Counted from the first letter of the stretch, positions 51,124-60,754 are shown. The stretch is 64,000 bases of DNA from Alphaproteobacteria bacterium (GCA_965228895.1 OZ245842.1:3136001-3200000), one strand, 5' to 3'. The notes: generated by a model from the sequence alone, not told the origin. Made by a program: numbers and translations.

Positions 51124-51804
51124 TCAGCCGGCGGCGACCGGCGTGAAGTCGCCGGTTGTCTTGTTCAGCCAGTGGAGTTCGCCTTCGGCGATCGAGAACC
51201 AGGCGCCATGCAGATCGAGGCTGCCCGCTTCGACGGCTTCGGCAACGAAAGGGAAACTCTTCAGGTGATCGAGTGATTGTTCGATTGCCAATCGCTCGAG
51301 GATGCGCAGACGTTCGGACTTCGTCAGACCGTTATCGCATGCCTGCATCGCGGCGCGCGCCGGCGCCAGAAGATCGACCCACGGACCGATGAACCGGCCC
51401 TGGGGCATGTTCTCGGCCGCCAGCGCGGCAGCCACGCCACTGCAAGAGCCGTGACCCATGACGACGATAACGTCGACACCGAGCACCGTGACGGCAAATT
51501 CAACCGCCGCGGACGTGCCGTGGAACGAGCCGGTCTCCGGGTGGTGGGTATCGCAAGGCGGCACGATGGCACCGACATTGCGCACGACAAACAGTTCACC
51601 CGGCGCGGCCGAAAAAATCGTCGCCGGATCAACCCGGCTGTCGGCGCAGCCGATGATCATGGTGCGCGGCGCTTGTCCTTCGGCGAGTTCGCGGAACAAC
51701 GCCGACTGTTCGGCGTATCGCCCCTGGCGAAAGCGTCGGTAGCCGCGAAGCAGGCGTTCGGGCACCAGTCTGGGCTGTGTTGGTGCCGTGGTGGTGACGG
51801 TCAT
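51124..51804 (-). CDS. Beta-class carbonic anhydrase
   Basis: GCADSRVDP, GELFVVRNV, VMGHGSCSG. Confidence 0.92.
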   Translation of the reverse strand: MTVTTTAPTQPRLVPERLLRGYRRFRQGRYAEQSALFRELAEGQAPRTMIIGCADSRVDPATIFSAAPGELFVVRNVGAIVPPCDTHHPETGSFHGTSAAVEFAVTVLGVDVIVVMGHGSCSGVAAALAAENMPQGRFIGPWVDLLAPARAAMQACDNGLTKSERLRILERLAIEQSLDHLKSFPFVAEAVEAGSLDLHGAWFSIAEGELHWLNKTTGDFTPVAAG

Positions 51805-51841
51805 GGGACGCCCCTGTCGGAAGTCTTCGTGCTAGATCGCA

Positions 51842-52153
51842 TCAGAACCGCTCCGCGCGCAAGACCTGACAGTCGCTAACGGCGACAACGCCGATATGAC
51901 GCTCGACGACCTGGAAGATGGAATCCAGAAGGCCGTCTAGCCGATCGGGTCGGATGACACAGACAACCTGCACCATGCCGCCGGCGCGCCCGACCTGGCC
52001 TTCGCTGCTCCAATGGCCCGAGCGACCGGAACCGCCGATGACAGGCAGAATCGAATAGCCGGTCACGCCCGCCGCTTCGATCGCGTCCGTCAGCCGGCCT
52101 TTCATGGGCGCTTCGATGATGATGGCCACGCGTTTGGCTTCATGGGTTTCCAT
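51842..52153 (-). CDS. sbtB: PII-like protein SbtB
   Basis: AKRV.III E, AGVTGYS, GGSGRSG, SDCQVLR.ERF; directly downstream of sbtA. Confidence 0.8.
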   Translation of the reverse strand: METHEAKRVAIIIEAPMKGRLTDAIEAAGVTGYSILPVIGGSGRSGHWSSEGQVGRAGGMVQVVCVIRPDRLDGLLDSIFQVVERHIGVVAVSDCQVLRAERF

Positions 52154-52157
52154 GGTT

Positions 52158-53141
52158 CTAGACTCCCGTAATCGCGCGCGCGACGGCAAGGTAGATGGGT
52201 AACCCGAGGATGAGATTAAACGGAAACGTAACCCCGAGCGACAACGTTAGATAGACCGCCGGATCCGCCTCCGGCACCGCGACGCGCATGGCCGCCGGCA
52301 CGGCGATATAGGAGGCCGAGGCCGACAGCACCATCAGAAGCATCACGCCGCCTGTGGAGAGGCCCAAGAGCGCCCCCGCCCCGGCACCGAACAACGCGCC
52401 GATGATGGGCATTAGACCGCCGAAGAGGAGCAATCCGGGCGTCATGAGTTTGCGGCTTTCGCGCAAACCCCGCCCGGCGATCAGGCCCATGTCGAGGAGG
52501 AACAGGCAGAGCGCGCCCTTGAACGGCGCGACCATGAAGGCCTCGATTTCGGCCAGCCCCTCTGGCCCGGTGATCATGCCGATGGCGAAGGCGCCGACCA
52601 AAAGCACGATGGAGCCGTTGAGCAAGATTTCGCGCCACAAGGCGCCATCCATGCGCGACGTGCCGCTGGAGCTCAGCAGCCAAAGCGCCGAGAGGATCGC
52701 CGGCGCCTCCATGGCGGCGGCGACGGCAACCATGAACCCCTCCGCGGCGATCCCCTGAGTTTCCAGAATCGAGCTTCCCGCCACGAACGTGACGATCGAG
52801 ATCGAGCCGTAGTGCGCGGCGACCACCGCCGCGTTGGTGCGGTCCAGCCGCGTCATCACGCGAAGCAGGCCGAAGGCGACGAAAGGCAATCCGGCCGAAA
52901 GGATGATACCGGCGGCAAGCGTCGAGCCGAGATGAAAATCGATGCCGTGTTCGGCGACGGAAACGCCGCCCTTGAACCCAATGGCAAAGAGCAGATAGAT
53001 CGAGAGTGCCTTGGCGGCGGCCTCGGGAAACGTGAGCTCGGAGCGTGCGAAGGCGGCGGCGACACCCAAAACAAATGCCAGGATCAGCGGCGATCCCAGA
53101 TTCTCCAACGCAAGCCCGAAAAACCCTTCCACCAACACCAC
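52158..53141 (-). CDS. sbtA: Sodium-dependent bicarbonate transporter
   Basis: SIYLLFAIGFKGG, AHYGSISIVTF, MEAPA, SASYIAVPAAMR, TFPFN. Confidence 0.9.
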   Translation of the reverse strand: MVLVEGFFGLALENLGSPLILAFVLGVAAAFARSELTFPEAAAKALSIYLLFAIGFKGGVSVAEHGIDFHLGSTLAAGIILSAGLPFVAFGLLRVMTRLDRTNAAVVAAHYGSISIVTFVAGSSILETQGIAAEGFMVAVAAAMEAPAILSALWLLSSSGTSRMDGALWREILLNGSIVLLVGAFAIGMITGPEGLAEIEAFMVAPFKGALCLFLLDMGLIAGRGLRESRKLMTPGLLLFGGLMPIIGALFGAGAGALLGLSTGGVMLLMVLSASASYIAVPAAMRVAVPEADPAVYLTLSLGVTFPFNLILGLPIYLAVARAITGV

Positions 53142-53229: not shown

Positions 53230-53583
53230 CTACTGCTGCTCGCAAATGACGGGGATGTCGTTCATCCATTCCATCGCGATCATGATCTCGTCCATCGGGA
53301 TTTCGGCCTGCAGCGCGTCGGACGCCTCCCGGTCGTTGGTGACCTGGGCGACCACCATCTCCTGCTGCTTCGGGGTAAGGTCAAGCCGCGCTCTTTCGCC
53401 GACGCACGCGCAGCCGCTGTCGGAAAGGTTAAGTTGAACTCGGCACTCCGCAACCAGCGTGTCGGCGGCATCGGGAGACGAGGCGTCGGCAGCGGTGCCG
53501 CCGGCGTCGGGGGCCGATTGACAGGCCGCGACGAGCGAAGCCAGCAGAACGACGGACGCAAAGACGCCATGGCGTTTGGCCAT
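53230..53583 (-). CDS. 4-Cys small lipoprotein, array paralog 1
   Basis: Lipobox-like LVAAC; C-x10-CxC...WM-x3-P-x2-CE. Confidence 0.8.
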   Translation of the reverse strand: MAKRHGVFASVVLLASLVAACQSAPDAGGTAADASSPDAADTLVAECRVQLNLSDSGCACVGERARLDLTPKQQEMVVAQVTNDREASDALQAEIPMDEIMIAMEWMNDIPVICEQQ

Positions 53584-53633
53584 CGCTCCCCTTCTCCCGA
53601 CCAGACGTCGCAACGTTGGCGCGGCGGCCGCGG

Positions 53634-53957
53634 TTACGGCTGCTCACAATCGGTGGGGGCGCTCATCATCCACTCGGCCGCCTGGGTCATTTCTTCGACG
53701 GTCATGCCCTGCATCAGGCTGTCGGATGCGGCTTTGTCATCGGTCACCTGGGCCAGCACAAACTCTTGCTGAGTCTCCGAAAGATCGCGGCGTGCGCTTT
53801 CACCGATGCAAGCGCAGCCACTATCGGAGAGCTCAAGTTGAACGTGGCATTCGTCCACCAGATCATCCGCGGCGTCCGCGTGCGCCTGACCAGCGATGAG
53901 GCCTGAAGCCAGTAAGGCGCCGAGGACGGCAGCGCCGAGACGGTGTGACGAAATCAT
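53634..53957 (-). CDS. 4-Cys small exported protein, array paralog 2
   Basis: Signal peptide ending AHA; same Cys/Trp motif. Confidence 0.8.
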   Translation of the reverse strand: MISSHRLGAAVLGALLASGLIAGQAHADAADDLVDECHVQLELSDSGCACIGESARRDLSETQQEFVLAQVTDDKAASDSLMQGMTVEEMTQAAEWMMSAPTDCEQP

Positions 53958-54066
53958 GATCTTTCCCCTATCGCTGATCAGCAGAAATCCACGGGTGACC
54001 TTTTAGGCCGCGAGGGCCGATCTGTCGAACGACCGGAGGTAGATGAGAGAAAACGCCACTGTCTTG

Positions 54067-54387
54067 TCAGTCGAACTCACATTTTGCCGGCGCATTGTCC
54101 ATCCAATCGCCGACATCGAAGACTTCTGTATCGGTCATCTCGCCTTCGAGTTTGGTGGACGCGGCTTCATCGCCGGTCAACTGCGCGACGACGTAGCCGC
54201 GCTGCGTTTTCGATAGCTCCTTGTCCGCGCTGTTGGCGATGCACTTGCACACGCTTTCGGCCAACTCAAGCTGGCCGAGGCAGGCCTTAACCAGCGGGTC
54301 GGCGGTTTCGGCCCGGGTCCCGGCTGAGAAAGCCAGGACGAGAACCGTGCCCGCCACGGCGACCCAGGACAGCGATGGCTTGGTCAT
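54067..54387 (-). CDS. 4-Cys small exported protein, array paralog 3
   Basis: Signal peptide; same Cys/Trp motif. Confidence 0.8.
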   Translation of the reverse strand: MTKPSLSWVAVAGTVLVLAFSAGTRAETADPLVKACLGQLELAESVCKCIANSADKELSKTQRGYVVAQLTGDEAASTKLEGEMTDTEVFDVGDWMDNAPAKCEFD

Positions 54388-54441
54388 GGTGTTCCCTTCC
54401 CTACCGACCAGCGAACGATCTCGTCGGCCGACTGCACACGC

Positions 54442-54765
54442 CTACTCAAACTCGCACTCGGCCGGCACTTGGTCCAACCAATCCAGAGAATAGTCGATTT
54501 CCTCGTCGGTCAGGTCCTGCGCGATCTCGTCGGCCACGGCGTCATCGCCCCAGACCAGCGCCAGTACGAAGTCCTGCTCATCCAGACTGAGCTCTTCGGC
54601 TGCGCTGTCGCCAAGGCACTCGCAGGCGCTCTCTGTCATGTCCAACTGAATGAGGCATTCCTCAACCAACGCCTCGACCGCATCCGCGCGTGCGGTTCCA
54701 ACAAAGAGAGACGAAGTGATGAGTGCACCGGCGATCGCGGCGCAGAACATACGAGCGTTGAGCAT
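54442..54765 (-). CDS. 4-Cys small exported protein, array paralog 4 (very acidic)
   Basis: Signal peptide ending ARA; same Cys/Trp motif. Confidence 0.8.
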   Translation of the reverse strand: MLNARMFCAAIAGALITSSLFVGTARADAVEALVEECLIQLDMTESACECLGDSAAEELSLDEQDFVLALVWGDDAVADEIAQDLTDEEIDYSLDWLDQVPAECEFE

Positions 54766-54907
54766 AGTGTTCCCCTGCAAAGTCTTTGTTGAACAAGCGT
54801 GTAGAGGACTCGACATGTCGGCCCAGAACGGGCCTGAGACAGATTGCCTGCGCCTTGTTTACGACGGCCAAATGCCGCTGTCGATCATCCCTAAGACGGT
54901 CTGCCGG

Positions 54908-54936
54908 TTGACACGGCCCGGCGACACACCTATGTG
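54908..54936 (+). promoter_or_regulatory. Sigma70-type promoter for the thrS leader
   Basis: TTGACA-17 bp-TATGTG, ending 7 nt before the leader ATG. Confidence 0.6.
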
Positions 54937-54943
54937 AACGCCC

Positions 54944-55021
54944 ATGTTCGGCTGGAATGCACAAACGTGGACGACCACGACGACCCGCAAAGGCGGGCCG
55001 CTGGGTTGTCGCGCGCGCTGA
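54944..55021 (+). CDS. Thr-rich leader peptide MFGWNAQTWTTTTTRKGGPLGCRAR
   Basis: Six Thr codons (five consecutive) directly upstream of a terminator and thrS. Confidence 0.85.
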   Translation: MFGWNAQTWTTTTTRKGGPLGCRAR

Positions 55022-55051
55022 ACGCCGCTTAGATAAAACACACACCCATTG

Positions 55052-55080
55052 GCCCCGCCGGCGACGGACGGGGCTTTTTT
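55052..55080 (+). terminator. Attenuator terminator upstream of thrS
   Basis: gccccg...cggggc followed by tttttt; 5' arm can alternatively pair with 54992-55006. Confidence 0.85.
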
Positions 55081-55124
55081 GTGTCCGGCCTCCGTCCACG
55101 CCCACGATGCAACGGAGACAAGAC

Positions 55125-56300
55125 ATGGACGAGAACGATCATAGAGCCATCGCCAACCGGATGGACCTGTTCCACCAGCAGGAGGAAGGTCCCGGTATGG
55201 TGTTCTGGCATCCCCGAGGATTCGCGCTCTACCGGATCATCGAGGACCACATCCGCGGCCACATGAAGCGCTCAGGCTTTCGCGAAATCCGCACGCCACA
55301 GCTTTTGGCGCGCGAGCTGTGGGAAAAAAGCGGTCACTGGGAAAAGTTCGCCGGCAACATGTTCGTCATCGACGACGACGAACACGCCCATGCGCTGAAA
55401 CCCATGAGCTGTCCGGCGCACGTGCAGGTCTTCAACAAGCGGGTGCGCTCGTTCCGCGACCTGCCGCTTCGTCTCGCCGAGTTCGGCGCCTGTCACCGCA
55501 ACGAACCGTCCGGTGCGCTTCATGGCCTGATGCGCACACGCGCGTTCGTGCAGGACGACGCGCATATCTTCTGCGCGCCCGATGATGTCGAATACGAGGT
55601 CGCGCGGTTCTGCCGCATGCTGTTCCAGATCTATGACGCGTTCGGCTTCGATGATGTCGCCGTCGCGTTTTCGACACGACCAGACAAGCGCGCGGGATCA
55701 GACGAAGCCTGGGACTGCGCCGAAGCCGCCCTGGAGGCTGCCGCCAAGGCGGCCGAACTCGACTATCGAGTCGACCCGGGCGAAGGCGCGTTTTATGGAC
55801 CCAAGCTGGACTTCCATCTGCGCGACAGTCACGGGCGCGACTGGCAGTGCGGCACCGTGCAGCTTGACCTGGTGCTGCCCGAACGCCTGGACGCCAGCTA
55901 CATCGACAGCGACGGCCAGCGCGCGCGTCCGGTGATGATCCACCACGCGGTGCTGGGCAGCATCGAGCGTTTTATCGGCATGCTGCTGGAACACCATAGC
56001 GGCGATCTGCCCCTGTGGCTGGCGCCCGAGCAGGTTATTGTCGCGAACATCACCGACGCCTCGGCGCCTTATGCGCACGAGGTCGCATCGAAGCTGGAAG
56101 CCGACGGCTTGCGCGTTGCACTCGATGTGCGATCGGATCGCATCGCCAAGAAGATCATCGATGCGCGCAGCGCGGGCATCCCGGTCCTGGCCGCCGTTGG
56201 TGAGCGCGAAGCACGCGACGGCACGGTCTCGCTTCGCCAGCGCGACGGCAGTCAAGACGTTGTGGCTCTCAACGACGCGGCCTGTGTCTTGGCTCCCTGA
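55125..56300 (+). CDS. thrS: Threonyl-tRNA synthetase, short form lacking TGS/editing domains
   Basis: Begins at the DHR motif; SGHW, KPMSCP, HRNEPSGALHGLMR, QDDAH, GEGAFYGPK, WQCGTVQLD, LGSIERF; GGAG RBS. Confidence 0.93.
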   Translation: MDENDHRAIANRMDLFHQQEEGPGMVFWHPRGFALYRIIEDHIRGHMKRSGFREIRTPQLLARELWEKSGHWEKFAGNMFVIDDDEHAHALKPMSCPAHVQVFNKRVRSFRDLPLRLAEFGACHRNEPSGALHGLMRTRAFVQDDAHIFCAPDDVEYEVARFCRMLFQIYDAFGFDDVAVAFSTRPDKRAGSDEAWDCAEAALEAAAKAAELDYRVDPGEGAFYGPKLDFHLRDSHGRDWQCGTVQLDLVLPERLDASYIDSDGQRARPVMIHHAVLGSIERFIGMLLEHHSGDLPLWLAPEQVIVANITDASAPYAHEVASKLEADGLRVALDVRSDRIAKKIIDARSAGIPVLAAVGEREARDGTVSLRQRDGSQDVVALNDAACVLAP

Positions 56301-56374
56301 GCGCGCCCGGTACGGCCCGGCATTGCGTGAACTTTGTGGTCGCGTAGAGTGCAGGATTCGATGGGGGAGCCTTC

Positions 56375-57913
56375 ATGGAAGATCGCTACGCCAAGAAATG
56401 GCGCGCGCTGGTCGGCATCAGCCTGCTTTCGTTTATCGTTTTCATGGATTACGGCATCGTCAACACGATTCTGCCGGGCATCCAGGCCGACCTCCTGGCG
56501 AGCGTCAGGCAATTGCAATGGGTCATGAACGTCTTCTTTATGACGCTTGCCATGTTCATGGTGACGATGGGGCGTCTGGGCGACATCTATGGCCGCCGGC
56601 GCGTGCTCTATATCGGCGTTGTCGTCTTCGGCGTCGCCTCGGCGGTGTGCGGCGCGTCGCCTGACCCCGCCATTCTGATCGCCGCGCGTGCGGTGCAGGG
56701 CACGGCGGCCGCAATCGGGCTGACCTGTGCGGCATCGCTGGTCACCCATGCCTTTCCGGAGGACGAGAAAGGCCGCGCGCTCGGTTTCTTCATGAGCATC
56801 ACCGCCGTCGGCATGGCGATCGGCCCGGTGATCGGCGGTTTCTTCCTGTCGTTTCTGTCGTGGCGCTGGGCGTTTTACGTCAACATTCCCGTCATCATCG
56901 TCGGCTTCATGATCTGCCGTGGCGCGGTGCCGGAAACGCCGCGCCTGCTGAGCGAAAAGGTCGACTGGCTGGGCCTGTTGTTCCTGGTGCCGGGCATCGG
57001 CGTCATGGTGCTGGCGATCATGCAGGGCAATAGCTGGGGCTGGGGCTCCGACGTCATGATCGCGCTCTATATCGTGACCGCCCTCTGCCTGGTCGCGTTT
57101 ATCGTTGTCGAGAAGCGCGTGGCCTCGCCCATCGTAGACCTTAAACTTTTTCGCCACCCAATGTTCCAAAGCGCGGTCTTCGCCGGCTTCGGCCTGGGCG
57201 GCTTTATCGGCATCGGCACGTTTCTGCCGGCGCTTTTCCTGATCAACATCCAGGGAATGCCGGCCTATGTCGCCGGCATGATGCTGCTGCCGATCACCGT
57301 GCTTGTCATGATCATCCCGCCGGCGATCGGCAAACTGGTCGACGCCAGGGGCCCGGCCGGTTTCATGATCCTGGGTCAGGCGATCCTGGTGATCGCCGCA
57401 GTTGTCCAGGTCTTCTTCGTCCCGGCGTCGCCGGCCTGGTTCGTGCTGCTGGGGCTTGCGCTGTTCGGCCTGGGCTGGGGTTTCCAGCAGGCCTCGACGG
57501 CGGTCGCTGCTACCAGCGCACTGCCGCCCGAAGCGGCCGGGCTTGCCATCGGCTCGCTGTGGACGTTCTGGAACATCGCCTCGTCGATCACGCTCGCGGT
57601 CGGTGGCATGATCCTGCGCGTCGTCGATCAGTCGCGCCTGGACGCGTCGCTGGCGGCGAACAACATCTCGCTCAGCAACCAGCAGCAGCATGTCATCCGC
57701 AGCCTTTTGTCGGACCCCAGTCGCGCAGAACAGACGCTGGGCGAACTGCCGGCCAAACTGTCGACGGAAATCACGCCCCTGTTCCACGACAGTTTCACAG
57801 AAGGCTACAACGGCGCCATGCTGTTCATGGCGATCTGGTGCGCGGTATGTCTGATCGGCACGATCCTGACCGCCATGCGCGGGCGCAAGGCCACTGCAGC
57901 AACGCCAGACTGA
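56375..57913 (+). CDS. MFS efflux transporter, DHA2 (EmrB/QacA) family
   Basis: D.GIVN..LP.I, GRLGDIYGRRR, GPVIGG, WRWAFYVNIP; about 14 TM. Confidence 0.9.
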   Translation: MEDRYAKKWRALVGISLLSFIVFMDYGIVNTILPGIQADLLASVRQLQWVMNVFFMTLAMFMVTMGRLGDIYGRRRVLYIGVVVFGVASAVCGASPDPAILIAARAVQGTAAAIGLTCAASLVTHAFPEDEKGRALGFFMSITAVGMAIGPVIGGFFLSFLSWRWAFYVNIPVIIVGFMICRGAVPETPRLLSEKVDWLGLLFLVPGIGVMVLAIMQGNSWGWGSDVMIALYIVTALCLVAFIVVEKRVASPIVDLKLFRHPMFQSAVFAGFGLGGFIGIGTFLPALFLINIQGMPAYVAGMMLLPITVLVMIIPPAIGKLVDARGPAGFMILGQAILVIAAVVQVFFVPASPAWFVLLGLALFGLGWGFQQASTAVAATSALPPEAAGLAIGSLWTFWNIASSITLAVGGMILRVVDQSRLDASLAANNISLSNQQQHVIRSLLSDPSRAEQTLGELPAKLSTEITPLFHDSFTEGYNGAMLFMAIWCAVCLIGTILTAMRGRKATAATPD

Positions 57914-57998
57914 CTGTCGTCACCACATCGTTGTTCACTAAAGCGCGGCAATGGCAGACTTCGGATCATTTGGAACGGTGTATGAAAGGTAAATCTTC

Positions 57999-58949
57999 AT
58001 GAGATATGTTGTACGGGCCATCGCGGCCGCTCTCGTCGTTTGGGTGGGCGTCGGTTTCGCGCCGACGACCATGGCGCAGGACCATCCGCCGGCGGTGATC
58101 TTTGAAGGCTTGATGGACAACTTCTTCGGCCAGGACAACGGTCTCGTGGTCTTCGGCACTTATGACATCGCCTTTGCGCCGGAGGGCCAAATCGATGCCA
58201 TCGTCGGCGTCGTCAATTCCGACGGCGAGGTAATGGCGCAGTTCCCGTTTTTCCCGGATTACAAAATTCACGAGGGGGTGTTCGGACGCATCCAAGTTGT
58301 TGGACCGGCCGACGTTCAATTGACCGAACCTGGTATCTACACGATGGTCTTTGTCGTGGACGGCGAACCGATCACACGGTTTCCGTTTCTGCTGGAACAG
58401 ACCGGTGACGGTTCGGATCCTTTCGATCCCGAAAAAACCTACGCCTTCGACGGATACTGGCGCACGCTCGCTCACATCACGACCGGCAGTGTGAACGATC
58501 AACCAATTCCGATATTTTCGATTTGGCTCGGCGGCGTCGATATGCCGACGCCGGATACCTTCCAGGAGTACTTCGCGGCCGAACTCATGCGCGATGGCGT
58601 GCTCATTGCCCATGCCCAAAAGCAAACGAGCTCCTACAGCAATGGTCAATTCAGGCGCCAAGAGGTCATCATCTACCAGCCCCATGAGGAAAATCAGGCG
58701 CACAACGCCATTGCGTTCACCATGGCCGACATGTCTGTTGACGGTTCCTATGAGCTGAACATCAGTCGACAATCCGACGGCGGCCTGTTGCGCAGTTACC
58801 GCTTTACGGTTTCCGGCGGTGAGATCGTACCTTTGCCCCGGACACAACTGGGCTTCGAACCGGCATCCGACTACATCGTGCCGCGAGTCACGCGTAAAGG
58901 ATCGACCATCTACGAGTTCGAAGAAGTAATCTGGATCGCCAGTGAATAG
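57999..58949 (+). CDS. Exported hypothetical protein (beta-rich, acidic)
   Basis: Signal peptide ending TMA; 316-aa ORF, no recognised motif. Confidence 0.75.
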   Translation: MRYVVRAIAAALVVWVGVGFAPTTMAQDHPPAVIFEGLMDNFFGQDNGLVVFGTYDIAFAPEGQIDAIVGVVNSDGEVMAQFPFFPDYKIHEGVFGRIQVVGPADVQLTEPGIYTMVFVVDGEPITRFPFLLEQTGDGSDPFDPEKTYAFDGYWRTLAHITTGSVNDQPIPIFSIWLGGVDMPTPDTFQEYFAAELMRDGVLIAHAQKQTSSYSNGQFRRQEVIIYQPHEENQAHNAIAFTMADMSVDGSYELNISRQSDGGLLRSYRFTVSGGEIVPLPRTQLGFEPASDYIVPRVTRKGSTIYEFEEVIWIASE

Positions 58950-58972
58950 CATGGTGCGATCAAGAGCATGAG

Positions 58973-59001
58973 TTGACCACGCGCCCGCAACGGCATAGAT
59001 A
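58973..59001 (+). promoter_or_regulatory. Sigma70-type promoter for the metG leader
   Basis: TTGACC-17 bp-TAGATA, ending 5 nt before the leader ATG. Confidence 0.55.
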
Positions 59002-59006
59002 GAGGC

Positions 59007-59087
59007 ATGGTCAATCTGACGAACCTTTCGGCCGCGATGATGAAACCGCACATGATGCATGGGGCGGCTTCCTTCGTTATGTCCTGA
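59007..59087 (+). CDS. Met-rich leader peptide MVNLTNLSAAMMKPHMMHGAASFVMS
   Basis: Five internal Met codons including two ATG-ATG pairs, upstream of a terminator and metG. Confidence 0.8.
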   Translation: MVNLTNLSAAMMKPHMMHGAASFVMS

Positions 59088-59116
59088 CGACACCAAGAAT
59101 TACCTGACCACGAAAC

Positions 59117-59148
59117 AAGCCGCCTCCTTCGCGAGGCGGTTTTTCTTT
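59117..59148 (+). terminator. Attenuator terminator upstream of metG
   Basis: aagccgcctc-cttcgc-gaggcggttt followed by ttcttt; 5' arm can alternatively pair with ggggcggctt at 59061-59070. Confidence 0.85.
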
Positions 59149-59188
59149 GTCGAATGCCGTCTTGCGTCTTGGCGCAGCGGAGAACGAC

Positions 59189-60754
59189 ATGAACTACCAT
59201 TCCGACACGACCCGAAGACCGTCCTGGTACATCACGACGGCGATCCCTTACGTCAATGCCGCGCCCCATATCGGCTTTGCGCTGGAGCTGGTGCAGGCCG
59301 ACTGCCTGGCGCGCTTTCATCAGGCCGCCGGCTATGACGTGCGCTTCCAGACAGGTAGCGACGAAAACAGCCTGAAGAATGTTGTCGCCGCCGAGAAGGC
59401 CGGCGTCACGGCACGCCAGCTTGTCGCCGAGAACGCGCAGCTCTTCGTGCGCCTGGGCAACGCGCTGAACACACGCGCCGACGGTTTCATCCGCACCAGC
59501 GCCGATGCGCGCCATCGCCTTGGCGTCGAAAAGCTGTGGCGCGCCGCTGACGCGCGCGGCGACATCTACAAAAAGGCCTATAGCGGCCTCTATTGCGTGG
59601 GCTGCGAACAATTCTATCGGCCCGACGACCTCGAACACGGCAGGTGTCCGGAACACGGCACCGAACCGGAGGAGGTCGAGGAAGAGAACTACTTCTTCCG
59701 ACTATCGCGCTACCGCCATGCGCTGCTTGAACGCATCACCTCTGGCGAGCTTTCGATCGAACCGGCGGGCCGCAGGAACGAAGTGCTGCGATGGCTCGAG
59801 GAAGGGCTGGATGACTTTTCGATCTCGCGGTCAAGCGAACGTGCCCATGGCTGGGGCTTGGCCGTGCCGGGCGATCCCGATCAGGTCATCTACGTCTGGT
59901 TCGATGCGCTGGGCAACTATGTCACCGCGCTCGATTACGATATCGAAGGCGGCCTTTATCAACGTTACTGGACCGGCGCCGCACAGCGCAGCCATGTTGT
60001 CGGCAAAGGCATCACTCGGTTTCACGCGATCTATTGGCCGGCCATGCTGCTGTCGGCCGGTCTGCCCTTGCCCGATCGTATTCTGGTGCACGGCTATGTC
60101 ACTGTCGAAGGCGACAAGATCGGCAAGTCGACGGGCAACGCCGTCGACCCGCTTCCGGTCATCGCCGCTTACGGCGCGGACGCGCTGCGCTACTACCTGC
60201 TGCGCCATATCCGAACCGCCGAAGACGGCGACTTCAGCCACGAGCGGCTGGCGCAAACCTATCAAACCGAGCTCGCCGGGCAATACGGCAACCTCGCCAA
60301 CCGCGTGTTGAGTTTGATCGAACGCTATGCGGATGGCGTTGTGCCCGCACGCGCCGAGAACGCCGAACCGACTGCGCTCGCCAAAGCAGTGGCGGACCTG
60401 CCGAACGCCGTTGCGGCGCATGTCGACCGGTTCTCGCTGCACGAAGCCGTGGCCGCGATCTGGGACGTCATCGGCGAGGCCAACCGCCATGTCGCCGCGA
60501 CCGAACCGTGGTCGCTGGCCAAACAGGTCGCGGCCCTCGACGACAGCACGGAGGCAAGCGCGGCGCGGCGGGCTCTCAATACCTGCTTGCACGACCTCGC
60601 CACAGCACTTGATGCCGTGGCACGTGCCTGCTGGCCGTTTCTGCCCGAGACGTCGGAAAAACTGCTGGCGCAGCTCGGCCTGACATCGGCCGTTGACCGT
60701 CGACCTCTCACGGGGCGGCGTGTGCGCTCAGGGTCGGTGTTGTTTCCGCGTTGA
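59189..60754 (+). CDS. metG: Methionyl-tRNA synthetase, short atypical form
   Basis: YITTAIPYVN..PHIGF, TGSDE, YCVGCE...CPEH knuckle, YVWFDAL.NY, GK.ITRFH, KIGKS.GN, GNL.NR. Confidence 0.93.
   Translation: MNYHSDTTRRPSWYITTAIPYVNAAPHIGFALELVQADCLARFHQAAGYDVRFQTGSDENSLKNVVAAEKAGVTARQLVAENAQLFVRLGNALNTRADGFIRTSADARHRLGVEKLWRAADARGDIYKKAYSGLYCVGCEQFYRPDDLEHGRCPEHGTEPEEVEEENYFFRLSRYRHALLERITSGELSIEPAGRRNEVLRWLEEGLDDFSISRSSERAHGWGLAVPGDPDQVIYVWFDALGNYVTALDYDIEGGLYQRYWTGAAQRSHVVGKGITRFHAIYWPAMLLSAGLPLPDRILVHGYVTVEGDKIGKSTGNAVDPLPVIAAYGADALRYYLLRHIRTAEDGDFSHERLAQTYQTELAGQYGNLANRVLSLIERYADGVVPARAENAEPTALAKAVADLPNAVAAHVDRFSLHEAVAAIWDVIGEANRHVAATEPWSLAKQVAALDDSTEASAARRALNTCLHDLATALDAVARACWPFLPETSEKLLAQLGLTSAVDRRPLTGRRVRSGSVLFPR

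Follow-up and report, generated by a model that had tools for sequence, protein, structure and literature searches.

Second-copy threonyl- and methionyl-tRNA synthetase genes, each behind a putative attenuator with a cognate-codon leader peptide, at one alphaproteobacterial locus

The locus and its genes

The DNA analysed was a 64-kb window (64,000 nucleotides, nt; G000:C1:3136001-3200000) of the 5.53-Mb single-contig genome of an alphaproteobacterium (G+C about 63%). On its plus strand, positions 54908-60754 were read from the sequence as a gene for a truncated threonyl-tRNA synthetase (ThrRS), a gene for a DHA2-family pump, a gene for an exported protein of 316 amino acids, a gene for a methionyl-tRNA synthetase (MetRS), and two leaders (Table 1). 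The synthetase genes and their products are referred to as thrS2 and metG2, and ThrRS2 and MetRS2. Both genes had the same upstream layout, i.e., a TTGAC-N17-TA promoter-like element, a leader open reading frame (ORF) starting 5-7 nt past the -10 hexamer, codons for the amino acid of the downstream enzyme, and an intrinsic terminator. An earlier reading of this DNA, made from the sequence alone (the sequence-only reading), had described a truncated thrS and an atypical metG within 6 kb with a common upstream layout, and this description was confirmed.

Table 1. Features of the thrS2-metG2 locus (positions in the window; regions 2, 3 and 4 are the antiterminator strand and the two terminator arms; SD, Shine-Dalgarno sequence)
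Feature	Position	Strand	Length	Details
Thr-leader promoter-like element	54908-54936	+		TTGACA 54908-54913, 17-nt spacer, TATGTG 54931-54936
Thr leader ORF	54944-55021	+	25 codons	MFGWNAQTWTTTTTRKGGPLGCRAR; begins 7 nt past -10 (leaderless-like); Thr codons 54965-54967 and 54971-54985
Thr-leader hairpin 1:2	54970-55010	+		5' arm 54970-54988, Thr codons; 3' arm 54993-55010, GGCGGG antiterminator strand (region 2)
Thr-leader intrinsic terminator	55052-55080	+		Stem 55052-55059 / 55066-55074 (regions 3, 4); TTTTTT 55075-55080
thrS2 anti-SD	55087-55097	+		GGCCTCCGTCC, includes CCTCCGT; against SD ACGGAG 55112-55117
thrS2	55125-56300	+	391 amino acids	ThrRS, catalytic core and anticodon-binding domain; GGAG 55114-55117
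DHA2-family efflux transporter gene (major facilitator superfamily, MFS)	56375-57913	+	512 amino acids	75 nt 3' of thrS2
Exported protein gene	57999-58949	+	316 amino acids	Strain-specific insert at this position
Met-leader promoter-like element	58973-59001	+		TTGACC 58973-58978, 17-nt spacer, TAGATA 58996-59001
Met leader ORF	59007-59087	+	26 codons	MVNLTNLSAAMMKPHMMHGAASFVMS; Met pairs 59037-59042 and 59052-59057
Met-leader region 2	59061-59070	+		GGGGCGGCTT, within leader ORF
Met-leader intrinsic terminator	59117-59148	+		AAGCCGCCTC, CTTCGC loop, GAGGCGGTTT; hairpin 59117-59142, then T-run
metG2	59189-60754	+	521 amino acids	MetRS; GGAG 59179-59182

A 447-amino-acid ORF from 54957 and a 535-amino-acid metG ORF both read through the terminators, and the former is an artefact. 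The shorter starts of thrS2 and metG2 were preferred because of their SD sequences and of the lengths of their relatives (about 395 and 517-540 amino acids, respectively). A simple sigma-70 scan called neither leader promoter because both -10 hexamers are weak; the elements are read as promoters because the TTGAC-N16/17-TA spacing is kept in homologs. The terminator of the metG2 leader was the highest-ranking match of the terminator scan, which found none between thrS2 and the DHA2 MFS gene. The 512-amino-acid transporter was assigned to DHA2 MFS by a family-profile match, and it is possibly co-transcribed with thrS2.

The two spare enzymes

ThrRS2 scored 468.4 bits on TIGR00418 (cut-off 383.65) over model positions 170-548 of 565 only, and aligned without gaps to residues 242-614 of Escherichia coli ThrRS. 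It comprised the class II core (PF00587) and the HGTP anticodon domain (PF03129), and, as the match was limited to those ranges shows, it lacks the TGS and editing (N2) domains. Upstream of thrS2 only the leader and promoter were present, and a domain remnant was not found there. ThrRS2 is unable to edit Ser-tRNA(Thr) in cis. Its Cys96, His147 and His273, the presumed zinc ligands, were all kept (E. coli 334, 385 and 511).

MetRS2 scored 416.8 bits on TIGR00398 (cut-off 336.35), had HIGF and KIGKS motifs in its translation, and fell under the cut-off of the PRK12267 equivalog (504 vs. 598). It carried a CxxC...CxxH knuckle, and the resident MetRS had no cysteine knuckle in its connective peptide. 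As the knuckle is in the spare and not in the housekeeping copy, the reverse of what a zinc-sparing backup would show, such a role was rejected for MetRS2.

Both genes are second copies in this genome, as the sequence-only reading had supposed. The genome search recovered a full-length thrS (G000:C1:4319373-4321055; 662 bits, TIGR00418 positions 1-564) and another metG (G000:C1:2270268-2271734, L007; 524 bits). ThrRS2 was 56% identical to the full-length ThrRS, and MetRS2 43% identical to the other MetRS.

The threonine leader

Upstream regions were compared for 28 thrS2 loci (26 unique sequences) from the own genus, two other alphaproteobacterial families and one Paraburkholderia metagenome-assembled genome (MAG). 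All 28 had a leader ORF and a near-invariant terminator, in the common order TTGAC-N17-TA, ATG 7-10 nt on, leader of 24-32 codons, GGCGG, and hairpin GGCCCCGCCGG-nnAC-GGACGGGGCC. TTGAC and a -10 hexamer starting with TA were kept at equal spacing in the alignment of these regions. The Thr run of this genome's leader reads TWTTTTT. At least four Thr per seven codons were present in 12 of the 28 leaders (0.2 expected from dinucleotide shuffles) and at least three in 17 (1.7 expected), and among 27 canonical thrS upstream regions at least three were present in none (1.0 expected).

The leader peptide was variable outside the regulatory codons; within the genus, codons 4-6 and the loop of hairpin 1:2 differed (AAAG, AATG, TTTG). 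The apparent Gly-Gly-Pro motif of the Thr leaders is region 2 at the RNA level. Covariation of the terminator was scored on an alignment of 24 sequences, in which 84% of cells were paired and 5 of 13 pairs had changes on both sides. All five covarying pairs were in the lower stem (GAGG/CCTC, GGGG/CCCC, AAGG/CCTT), and the core was invariant in the 24 homologs. The covariation score was 0.152 vs. 0.112 for shuffles, was matched by 3 of 500 shuffles, and was above every slid register. The core pattern occurred a single time in the whole genome. Its invariance would follow from the double pairing required of region 3 (with 2 and 4) and of region 2 (with 1 and 3), and from horizontal spread of the whole cassette; because the paired cores are invariant, covariation of the 2:3 pairing is not scorable.

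The minimum free energy (MFE) structure of the Thr leader had a 16-bp hairpin with the Thr codons as its 5' arm, followed by the terminator (z-score -2.96). In folds of the nascent RNA, which are a model and not data, GGCGG paired with the last regulatory codons before region 3 in 26 of 26 unique leaders with no ribosome placed, and once a ribosome footprint covered these codons, region 2 was paired with region 3 instead, also in 26 of 26. This antiterminator (2:3, GGCGGG with CCCGCC) was present in all 26 leaders and is mutually exclusive with the terminator (3:4). Judged by RNAduplex and shuffles, the 2:3 pairing was only modestly better than shuffles in single sequences. The equilibrium probability of the terminator in the own Thr leader was 1.00 for the free RNA and for a ribosome halted at the stop codon, and 0.23-0.63 for stalls on codons 2-5 of the Thr run; in the leaders of two congeners it went down to 0.01-0.06 on stalling. 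Equilibrium masking was dropped as a general test, as the probability of the terminator decreased in the own genus and a few others but was near 1 in most Thr and many Met homologs, and nascent-RNA folds were therefore relied on.

In the folds, the unpaired probability of the thrS2 SD was 0.00 with the terminator formed and 0.45 with region 3 removed. The anti-SD, being complementary to the 3' terminator arm as well, suggests a possible second, translational layer of control for thrS2. A cascade of six segments, with the SD freed by pairing between region 4 and the anti-SD, was rejected: SD opening increased by more than 0.2 in 7 of 25 Thr leaders, the own included, and was not family-wide.

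In one genus of family f111 (L127, L226-L230, L232-L241), a mixed leader, MQSIILTV[AV]TIKVTA.., was observed, with a weak terminator T-tract. From their composition, these Thr/Ile/Val leaders may sense several amino acids or act differently.

The methionine leader

The own Met leader contains two Met pairs (MM..MM). In genome G342, whose enzyme is 55% identical to MetRS2 and which has a canonical metG too, the leader ..VSMMMRPL.. is followed by a terminator. Met-rich leaders were frequent in the metagenome relatives (..PVMAMPLMTM.., ..FSMMMPLL.., ..AMMSMNMQM.., ..FFMMSMVMRMRG.., ..NSMMMAMAMR..). The metagenome relatives of MetRS2 were taken from among the matches listed. Met codons were counted at 72 loci whose upstream sequence extended over at least 200 nt, and eight loci with shorter upstream sequence were dropped. 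With a 52% identity cut-off set after the data had been viewed, at least two Met per seven codons were present in 13 of the 22 listed loci at or above it (1.2 expected) and at least three in 8 (0.0 expected); below it, at least two were present in 5 of 50 (2.4 expected) and at least three in 1 of 50 (0.1 expected). In the MetRS tree, on which leaders were labelled likewise after viewing the data, all 25 leader-bearing rows were in one 35-row clade (SH-like approximate likelihood ratio test, SH-aLRT, 96), and 8 of 8 members of the own subclade had a leader. The promoter spacing of the Met leader was repeated in L129, L130 and L140-L144.

AUG-CCGC (Met-Pro) was recurrent: the CCGC beside the Met codons constitutes region 1, opposite the GCGG of region 2. 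In the own leader, GGGGCGGCTT (region 2) is complementary to AAGCCGCCTC (region 3). Terminators of Met relatives were delimited automatically in 11 cases and by hand in 2. When the ribosome was placed at the first Met cluster, as if stalled, the nascent folds of all 13 Met leaders had region 3 paired with upstream sequence. The MFE structure of the full leader, from ATG to terminator end, held the terminator in 11 of 13, the own leader included, and the idea that the Met leader is ON by default when untranslated, which one fold had suggested, was dropped for that reason.

At another group of loci (L165, L166, L172, L175, L177; also L158, L162, L167, L168, L203, L182), a mini-ORF encoding MMPRSRGR or variants lay over a CCCCGC/GCGGGG hairpin and was followed by a second hairpin. 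These loci are on metagenome contigs of high G+C, 5' of MetRS about 53% identical to MetRS2. By its sequence, the mini-ORF looks like a distinct, very short putative Met sensor with the post-start codon as its sole regulatory codon.

Distribution and phylogeny

Among 40 relatives searched, only the two other genomes of the genus (G001, G002) had thrS2 (94 and 89% identity) and metG2 (88 and 87%). Each of them carried the two genes on one contig, separated by the MFS gene and without the 316-amino-acid ORF at this place. Distribution in the class was taken from an even sample of 400 other genomes, which is a sample and not a proof of absence: both types were rare, with ThrRS2-type genes present in 3 and MetRS2-type genes in 1, and no sampled genome outside the genus was found with both. 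In the family of one of the sample matches, 23 of 40 genomes had ThrRS2. The protein database held many proteins of about 395 amino acids that were 66-91% identical to ThrRS2 (Kiloniellales, Ferrovibrio, Falsiroseomonas and Minwuiales MAGs among the names) and many MetRS 55-72% identical to MetRS2 (Methylocapsa, Bosea, Chelativorans, Methylocystis and Rhizobium among the names). Full-length thrS was present in 5 of 5 other tested genomes with ThrRS2, and G342 and G002 held both metG types. In G001 (95% complete), a search limited to E of 1e-80 or better showed the metG2 type only.

A tree built from 135 ThrRS catalytic regions had all 28 short enzymes on one side of a branch (SH-aLRT 100, stem 0.39). 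The tree of 93 MetRS sequences set the resident enzymes of Alphaproteobacteria apart as a clade (branch length 0.5), with MetRS2 in another lineage. From these separate positions, ThrRS2 and MetRS2 are regarded as old, distinct, acquired lineages and not as recent duplicates.

In a scan of genome contigs with ThrRS2, canonical thrS were dominant among the matches listed, and the sole truncated type there was L045:6815-8191, from the Paraburkholderia MAG (a betaproteobacterium). It had a truncated ThrRS (62% identity), a leader with a Thr run (..AAVTTTTTTFTGG..) and the same terminator core, and its enzyme grouped within the 28-member short clade. By sequence, this indicates a probable transfer of the whole Thr cassette across classes.

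The sequence-only reading had named leaders that are not conserved in homologs as a refutation; cognate leaders were found in other families, in one other class and in metagenomes, so that it was not refuted on this point. Its proposal that the two genes form one integrated system fared otherwise. At the 10 other thrS2 loci inspected the gene was monocistronic, and the genes after it were unrelated or on the opposite strand. Of the 79 other metG2 loci from metagenomes (among the matches listed), none had thrS2 or a pump nearby, and the linkage thrS2-MFS-metG2 was seen only in this genus.

Proposed mechanism

The locus probably contains two independent spare-synthetase cassettes, each under a classical ribosome-mediated transcription attenuator that reads the charging of its own tRNA. 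The sequence elements, the second-copy status, the conservation of leaders and terminators and the compatibility of the folds are what the analysis showed, and they are the basis of this reading. The case for attenuation is strong for Thr and weaker for Met. Transcription would begin at or just before the leader ATG. With ample charged Thr-tRNA or Met-tRNA, the ribosome would clear the cognate codons, region 2 would be covered or would re-pair with region 1, regions 3 and 4 would form the terminator, and RNA polymerase would halt before thrS2 or metG2. With charged tRNA scarce, the ribosome would stall on the Thr run or the Met cluster and mask region 1, region 2 would pair with region 3, the terminator would not form, and the spare synthetase would be made; read-through into thrS2 would probably yield the downstream efflux pump too. 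Induction would follow whenever charged Thr-tRNA or Met-tRNA is low, whether through starvation, because the housekeeping enzyme is lost or inhibited, or under another stress. The predicted folds agree with the 1:2, 2:3 and 3:4 logic of an attenuator and in this support the sequence-only reading.

Several observations weigh against this interpretation, and for both leaders the related sequences are non-independent. For the Thr leader, 16 of the 28 loci, all of one genus, had the mixed Thr/Ile/Val composition, with only 1-3 Thr per seven codons, and in most homologs the stable terminator stayed at a probability near 1 under any mask. As the terminator is too stable there for an equilibrium effect, a kinetic mechanism of the classical kind would be required. 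For the Met leader, the two congeners had isolated Met codons only (..KTMPRMF..), one Met-rich match (L149) was inside the upstream gene, and the cut-off and tree labels were chosen post hoc. The 1:2 hairpin of the own Met leader was weak, its nascent fold already had regions 2 and 3 paired when no ribosome was placed or when one stood at the stop codon, its equilibrium probability of the terminator decreased only from 0.86 to 0.73, and a stall on the second Met pair would mask region 2; because of these four points the Met attenuator was rated lower than the Thr attenuator. The transcription start, stalling, termination, read-through, induction and physiological trigger are, for both leaders, inferred from the sequence.

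Without editing in cis, ThrRS2 is most likely an emergency supplier that leans on the full-length enzyme, or is error-tolerant. Editing in trans would be possible, since full-length thrS always accompanied ThrRS2 in the genomes tested. The best-supported account of the linkage is that the cassettes met in this genus around an efflux gene. A broader proposal is less likely than not: that both are self-contained, horizontally mobile cassettes, one with an editing-less ThrRS spread, with its near-invariant attenuator, across several alphaproteobacterial families and into a betaproteobacterium, the other with a zinc-knuckle MetRS and what would be the first described Met-specific leader-peptide attenuator, joined here around a pump as a translation-rescue island. 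If methionine is sensed in this way, the leader must cope with a start codon of its own that likewise depends on MetRS.

Alternative explanations

It is unlikely that the locus is chiefly an antibiotic-resistance unit, in which inhibitor-insensitive ThrRS2 and MetRS2 and the MFS exporter would be induced by a natural ThrRS or MetRS inhibitor, an arrangement that is compatible with attenuation. In favour of this explanation, the Streptomyces TrpRS1 is reportedly an auxiliary resistant synthetase; against it, a natural inhibitor of MetRS that could have selected metG2 is not known to us. The proximity of the DHA2 gene to thrS2, with no terminator found between them, and its retention in all three genomes of the genus are in its favour, as is the placement of both spare enzymes in old, divergent lineages and not among recent duplicates. 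Resistant auxiliary synthetases are an established theme, exemplified by ObaO (10.1101/704981; PMC11252418). The obafluorin-immunity enzyme ObaO has Ser and Met at E. coli positions 463 and 489, and G463S alone gives resistance to obafluorin and borrelidin (PMC11252418), whereas ThrRS2 keeps Tyr224, Gly225 and Leu251 (E. coli Tyr462, Gly463 and Leu489). The scanned flanks had no nonribosomal peptide synthetase, polyketide synthase or other biosynthetic genes, and contained a bicarbonate transporter, a carbonic anhydrase, Sel1 repeats and small secreted proteins. An ObaO-type resistant ThrRS was rejected on the kept Gly463 and Leu489 and the lack of a biosynthetic cluster in the scanned flanks, and a producer's self-resistance gene on the latter. 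Outside the genus, moreover, thrS2 was monocistronic with unrelated neighbours at the 10 inspected loci, and metG2 homologs (among the matches listed) had no MFS gene or thrS2 nearby. The pump is the only hint of resistance, and the kept Gly463 and Leu489 speak against the known routes. Of the rescue or resistance locus put forward by the sequence-only reading, the extra copies, the conserved leaders and the fold logic were supported, and the resistance half and the single integrated system were left unsupported.

The preferred reading, attenuation by cognate tRNA charging, also has to be set against two explanations of very low probability. The leader ORFs might be general sensors of translation stress, of the type of the erm and whiB7 upstream ORFs, that turn on the pump, with Thr and Met codons incidental. 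Upstream-ORF sensors of ribosome-targeting antibiotics are known, and an efflux pump is in the putative thrS2 operon. This is nevertheless highly improbable, given that in both cassettes, and in many relatives, the leader was enriched in the amino acid which the enzyme encoded 3' of it charges, that the enriched codons were in or beside region 1, as in amino-acid attenuators, and that the pump was absent from the thrS2 cassette outside the genus. The least probable alternative considered is that ThrRS2 is non-translational, e.g., an aminoacyl donor for a non-ribosomal pathway, with the leader merely tuning it to Thr supply. Its lack of TGS and editing domains would fit, and aminoacyl-tRNA synthetase paralogs with non-translational roles are known (PMC9437257). 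ThrRS2 was, however, above the TIGR00418 equivalog cut-off (468 vs. 384 bits) and retained the anticodon-binding domain and Cys96, His147 and His273, and the predicted leader logic, ON at low Thr-tRNA, would suit a charging enzyme and not a consumer of threonine.

Relation to known systems

Neither leader appears to be a T-box or a member of a known leader family. Rfam gave no match in the whole 64-kb window at gathering scores, and neither a T-box nor Thr_leader for the two leaders at E up to 10 (best E 0.11, on the opposite strand). No Pfam or NCBIfam family was found for either leader peptide, and searches of the open-access literature found no account of leader peptides for Thr or Met 5' of thrS or metG.

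The textbook cases of leader-peptide attenuation are in amino-acid biosynthesis; among synthetases, pheST and a few spare enzymes are known to be controlled in this way. Alphaproteobacteria are, to our knowledge, largely without T-boxes, and methionine genes are normally under S-adenosylmethionine (SAM) riboswitches, T-boxes or protein regulators. In the E. coli pheST leader (pheM), a leader ORF with a run of cognate codons and an intrinsic terminator precede the synthetase gene, and regulation is by ribosome-mediated attenuation. The present leaders share the short cognate-run ORF, the terminator, the position before a synthetase gene and, putatively, ribosome-mediated attenuation; unlike the only, housekeeping PheRS, they precede extra copies, concern Thr and Met, start at about the predicted +1, and are unrelated in sequence. 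The E. coli thrL leader (Rfam Thr_leader) contains Thr and Ile codons and a terminator and precedes biosynthetic genes. A Thr-rich leader governing a terminator is common to both cases, and the Thr/Ile/Val leaders of the f111 genus are similar to thrL in composition, but here a synthetase gene takes the place of the biosynthetic genes and no Rfam match was obtained.

Spare synthetases under comparable control are said to exist in other phyla. The auxiliary TrpRS1 of Streptomyces coelicolor, reportedly described by Vecchione and Sello in 2010, is said to be indolmycin-resistant and induced via ribosome-mediated attenuation. It resembles the present enzymes as a second synthetase under transcriptional attenuation, whereas no resistance marker was found in ThrRS2, and phylum, amino acid and sequence differ. 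The thrZ gene of Bacillus subtilis reportedly encodes a silent spare full-length ThrRS, induced by a T-box on Thr starvation or thrS depletion. A second ThrRS switched on as charging of tRNA(Thr) falls would be common to both; thrZ, however, has a T-box that binds uncharged tRNA and a full-length product, in contrast to the leader-peptide sensor and the enzyme without editing domain proposed here. The crenarchaeal ThrRS-cat (Aeropyrum) is reportedly a housekeeping enzyme without cis-editing domain, paired with a separate editing protein. ThrRS2 likewise has catalytic and anticodon-binding domains only, but is of bacterial type and an extra copy.

In bacilli, a His leader peptide was predicted by comparative genomics before hisS paralogs, as a prediction only (PMC2965389); it is similar in having a cognate-codon leader before a duplicated synthetase, and differs in amino acid, phylum and sequence. 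The T2 ThrRS of Anabaena is a duplicated, full-length enzyme whose editing domain is degenerate; zinc shortage induces it, and T1 was proposed to edit in trans (PMC4787780). It is a parallel for a duplicated, editing-impaired ThrRS used under stress, with trans editing by the housekeeping enzyme proposed; it differs from ThrRS2, for which leader-peptide control is proposed and in which the editing domain is absent.

What appears to be new are the Thr and Met versions in Proteobacteria, the conserved, apparently mobile attenuator tied to an editing-less ThrRS clade, and the sensing of methionine. Leader-peptide attenuation would be extended to ThrRS and MetRS in Alphaproteobacteria, and two conserved RNA elements absent from Rfam are defined. 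A widespread clade of editing-less bacterial ThrRS under emergency-only control would represent a testable trade of fidelity for supply. It would be unusual for a leader peptide to sense Met, and short portable elements of this kind could serve as sensors of tRNA charging.

Neighbouring genes

The 316-amino-acid exported ORF had no Pfam or NCBIfam family, and a protein-cluster lookup gave unnamed clusters only. It was missing at this position in G001 and G002, which had merely 33%-identical homologs elsewhere. A 62%-identical homolog (L141:2297-2992) was directly 3' of the closest metagenomic metG2 among the matches listed (72% identity); to judge from this arrangement, the exported protein may recur together with the MetRS cassette as its partner. 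The G+C content was 0.589 across 58000-60000, vs. about 0.63 elsewhere. This dip, in agreement with a foreign origin, spanned the 316-amino-acid ORF and the beginning of metG2.

Upstream of the locus, four tandem paralogous ORFs of 106-127 amino acids (53230-54816, minus strand) had signal-peptide-like N-termini and the Cys motifs ..EC.VQL.LS.SGCAC.. and ..P..CE..; one of the four was scanned against Pfam, with no family found. At 51124-53138, on the minus strand, a Na+-dependent bicarbonate transporter gene (Sbt family) adjoined a beta-carbonic anhydrase gene, constituting a small inorganic-carbon uptake pair.

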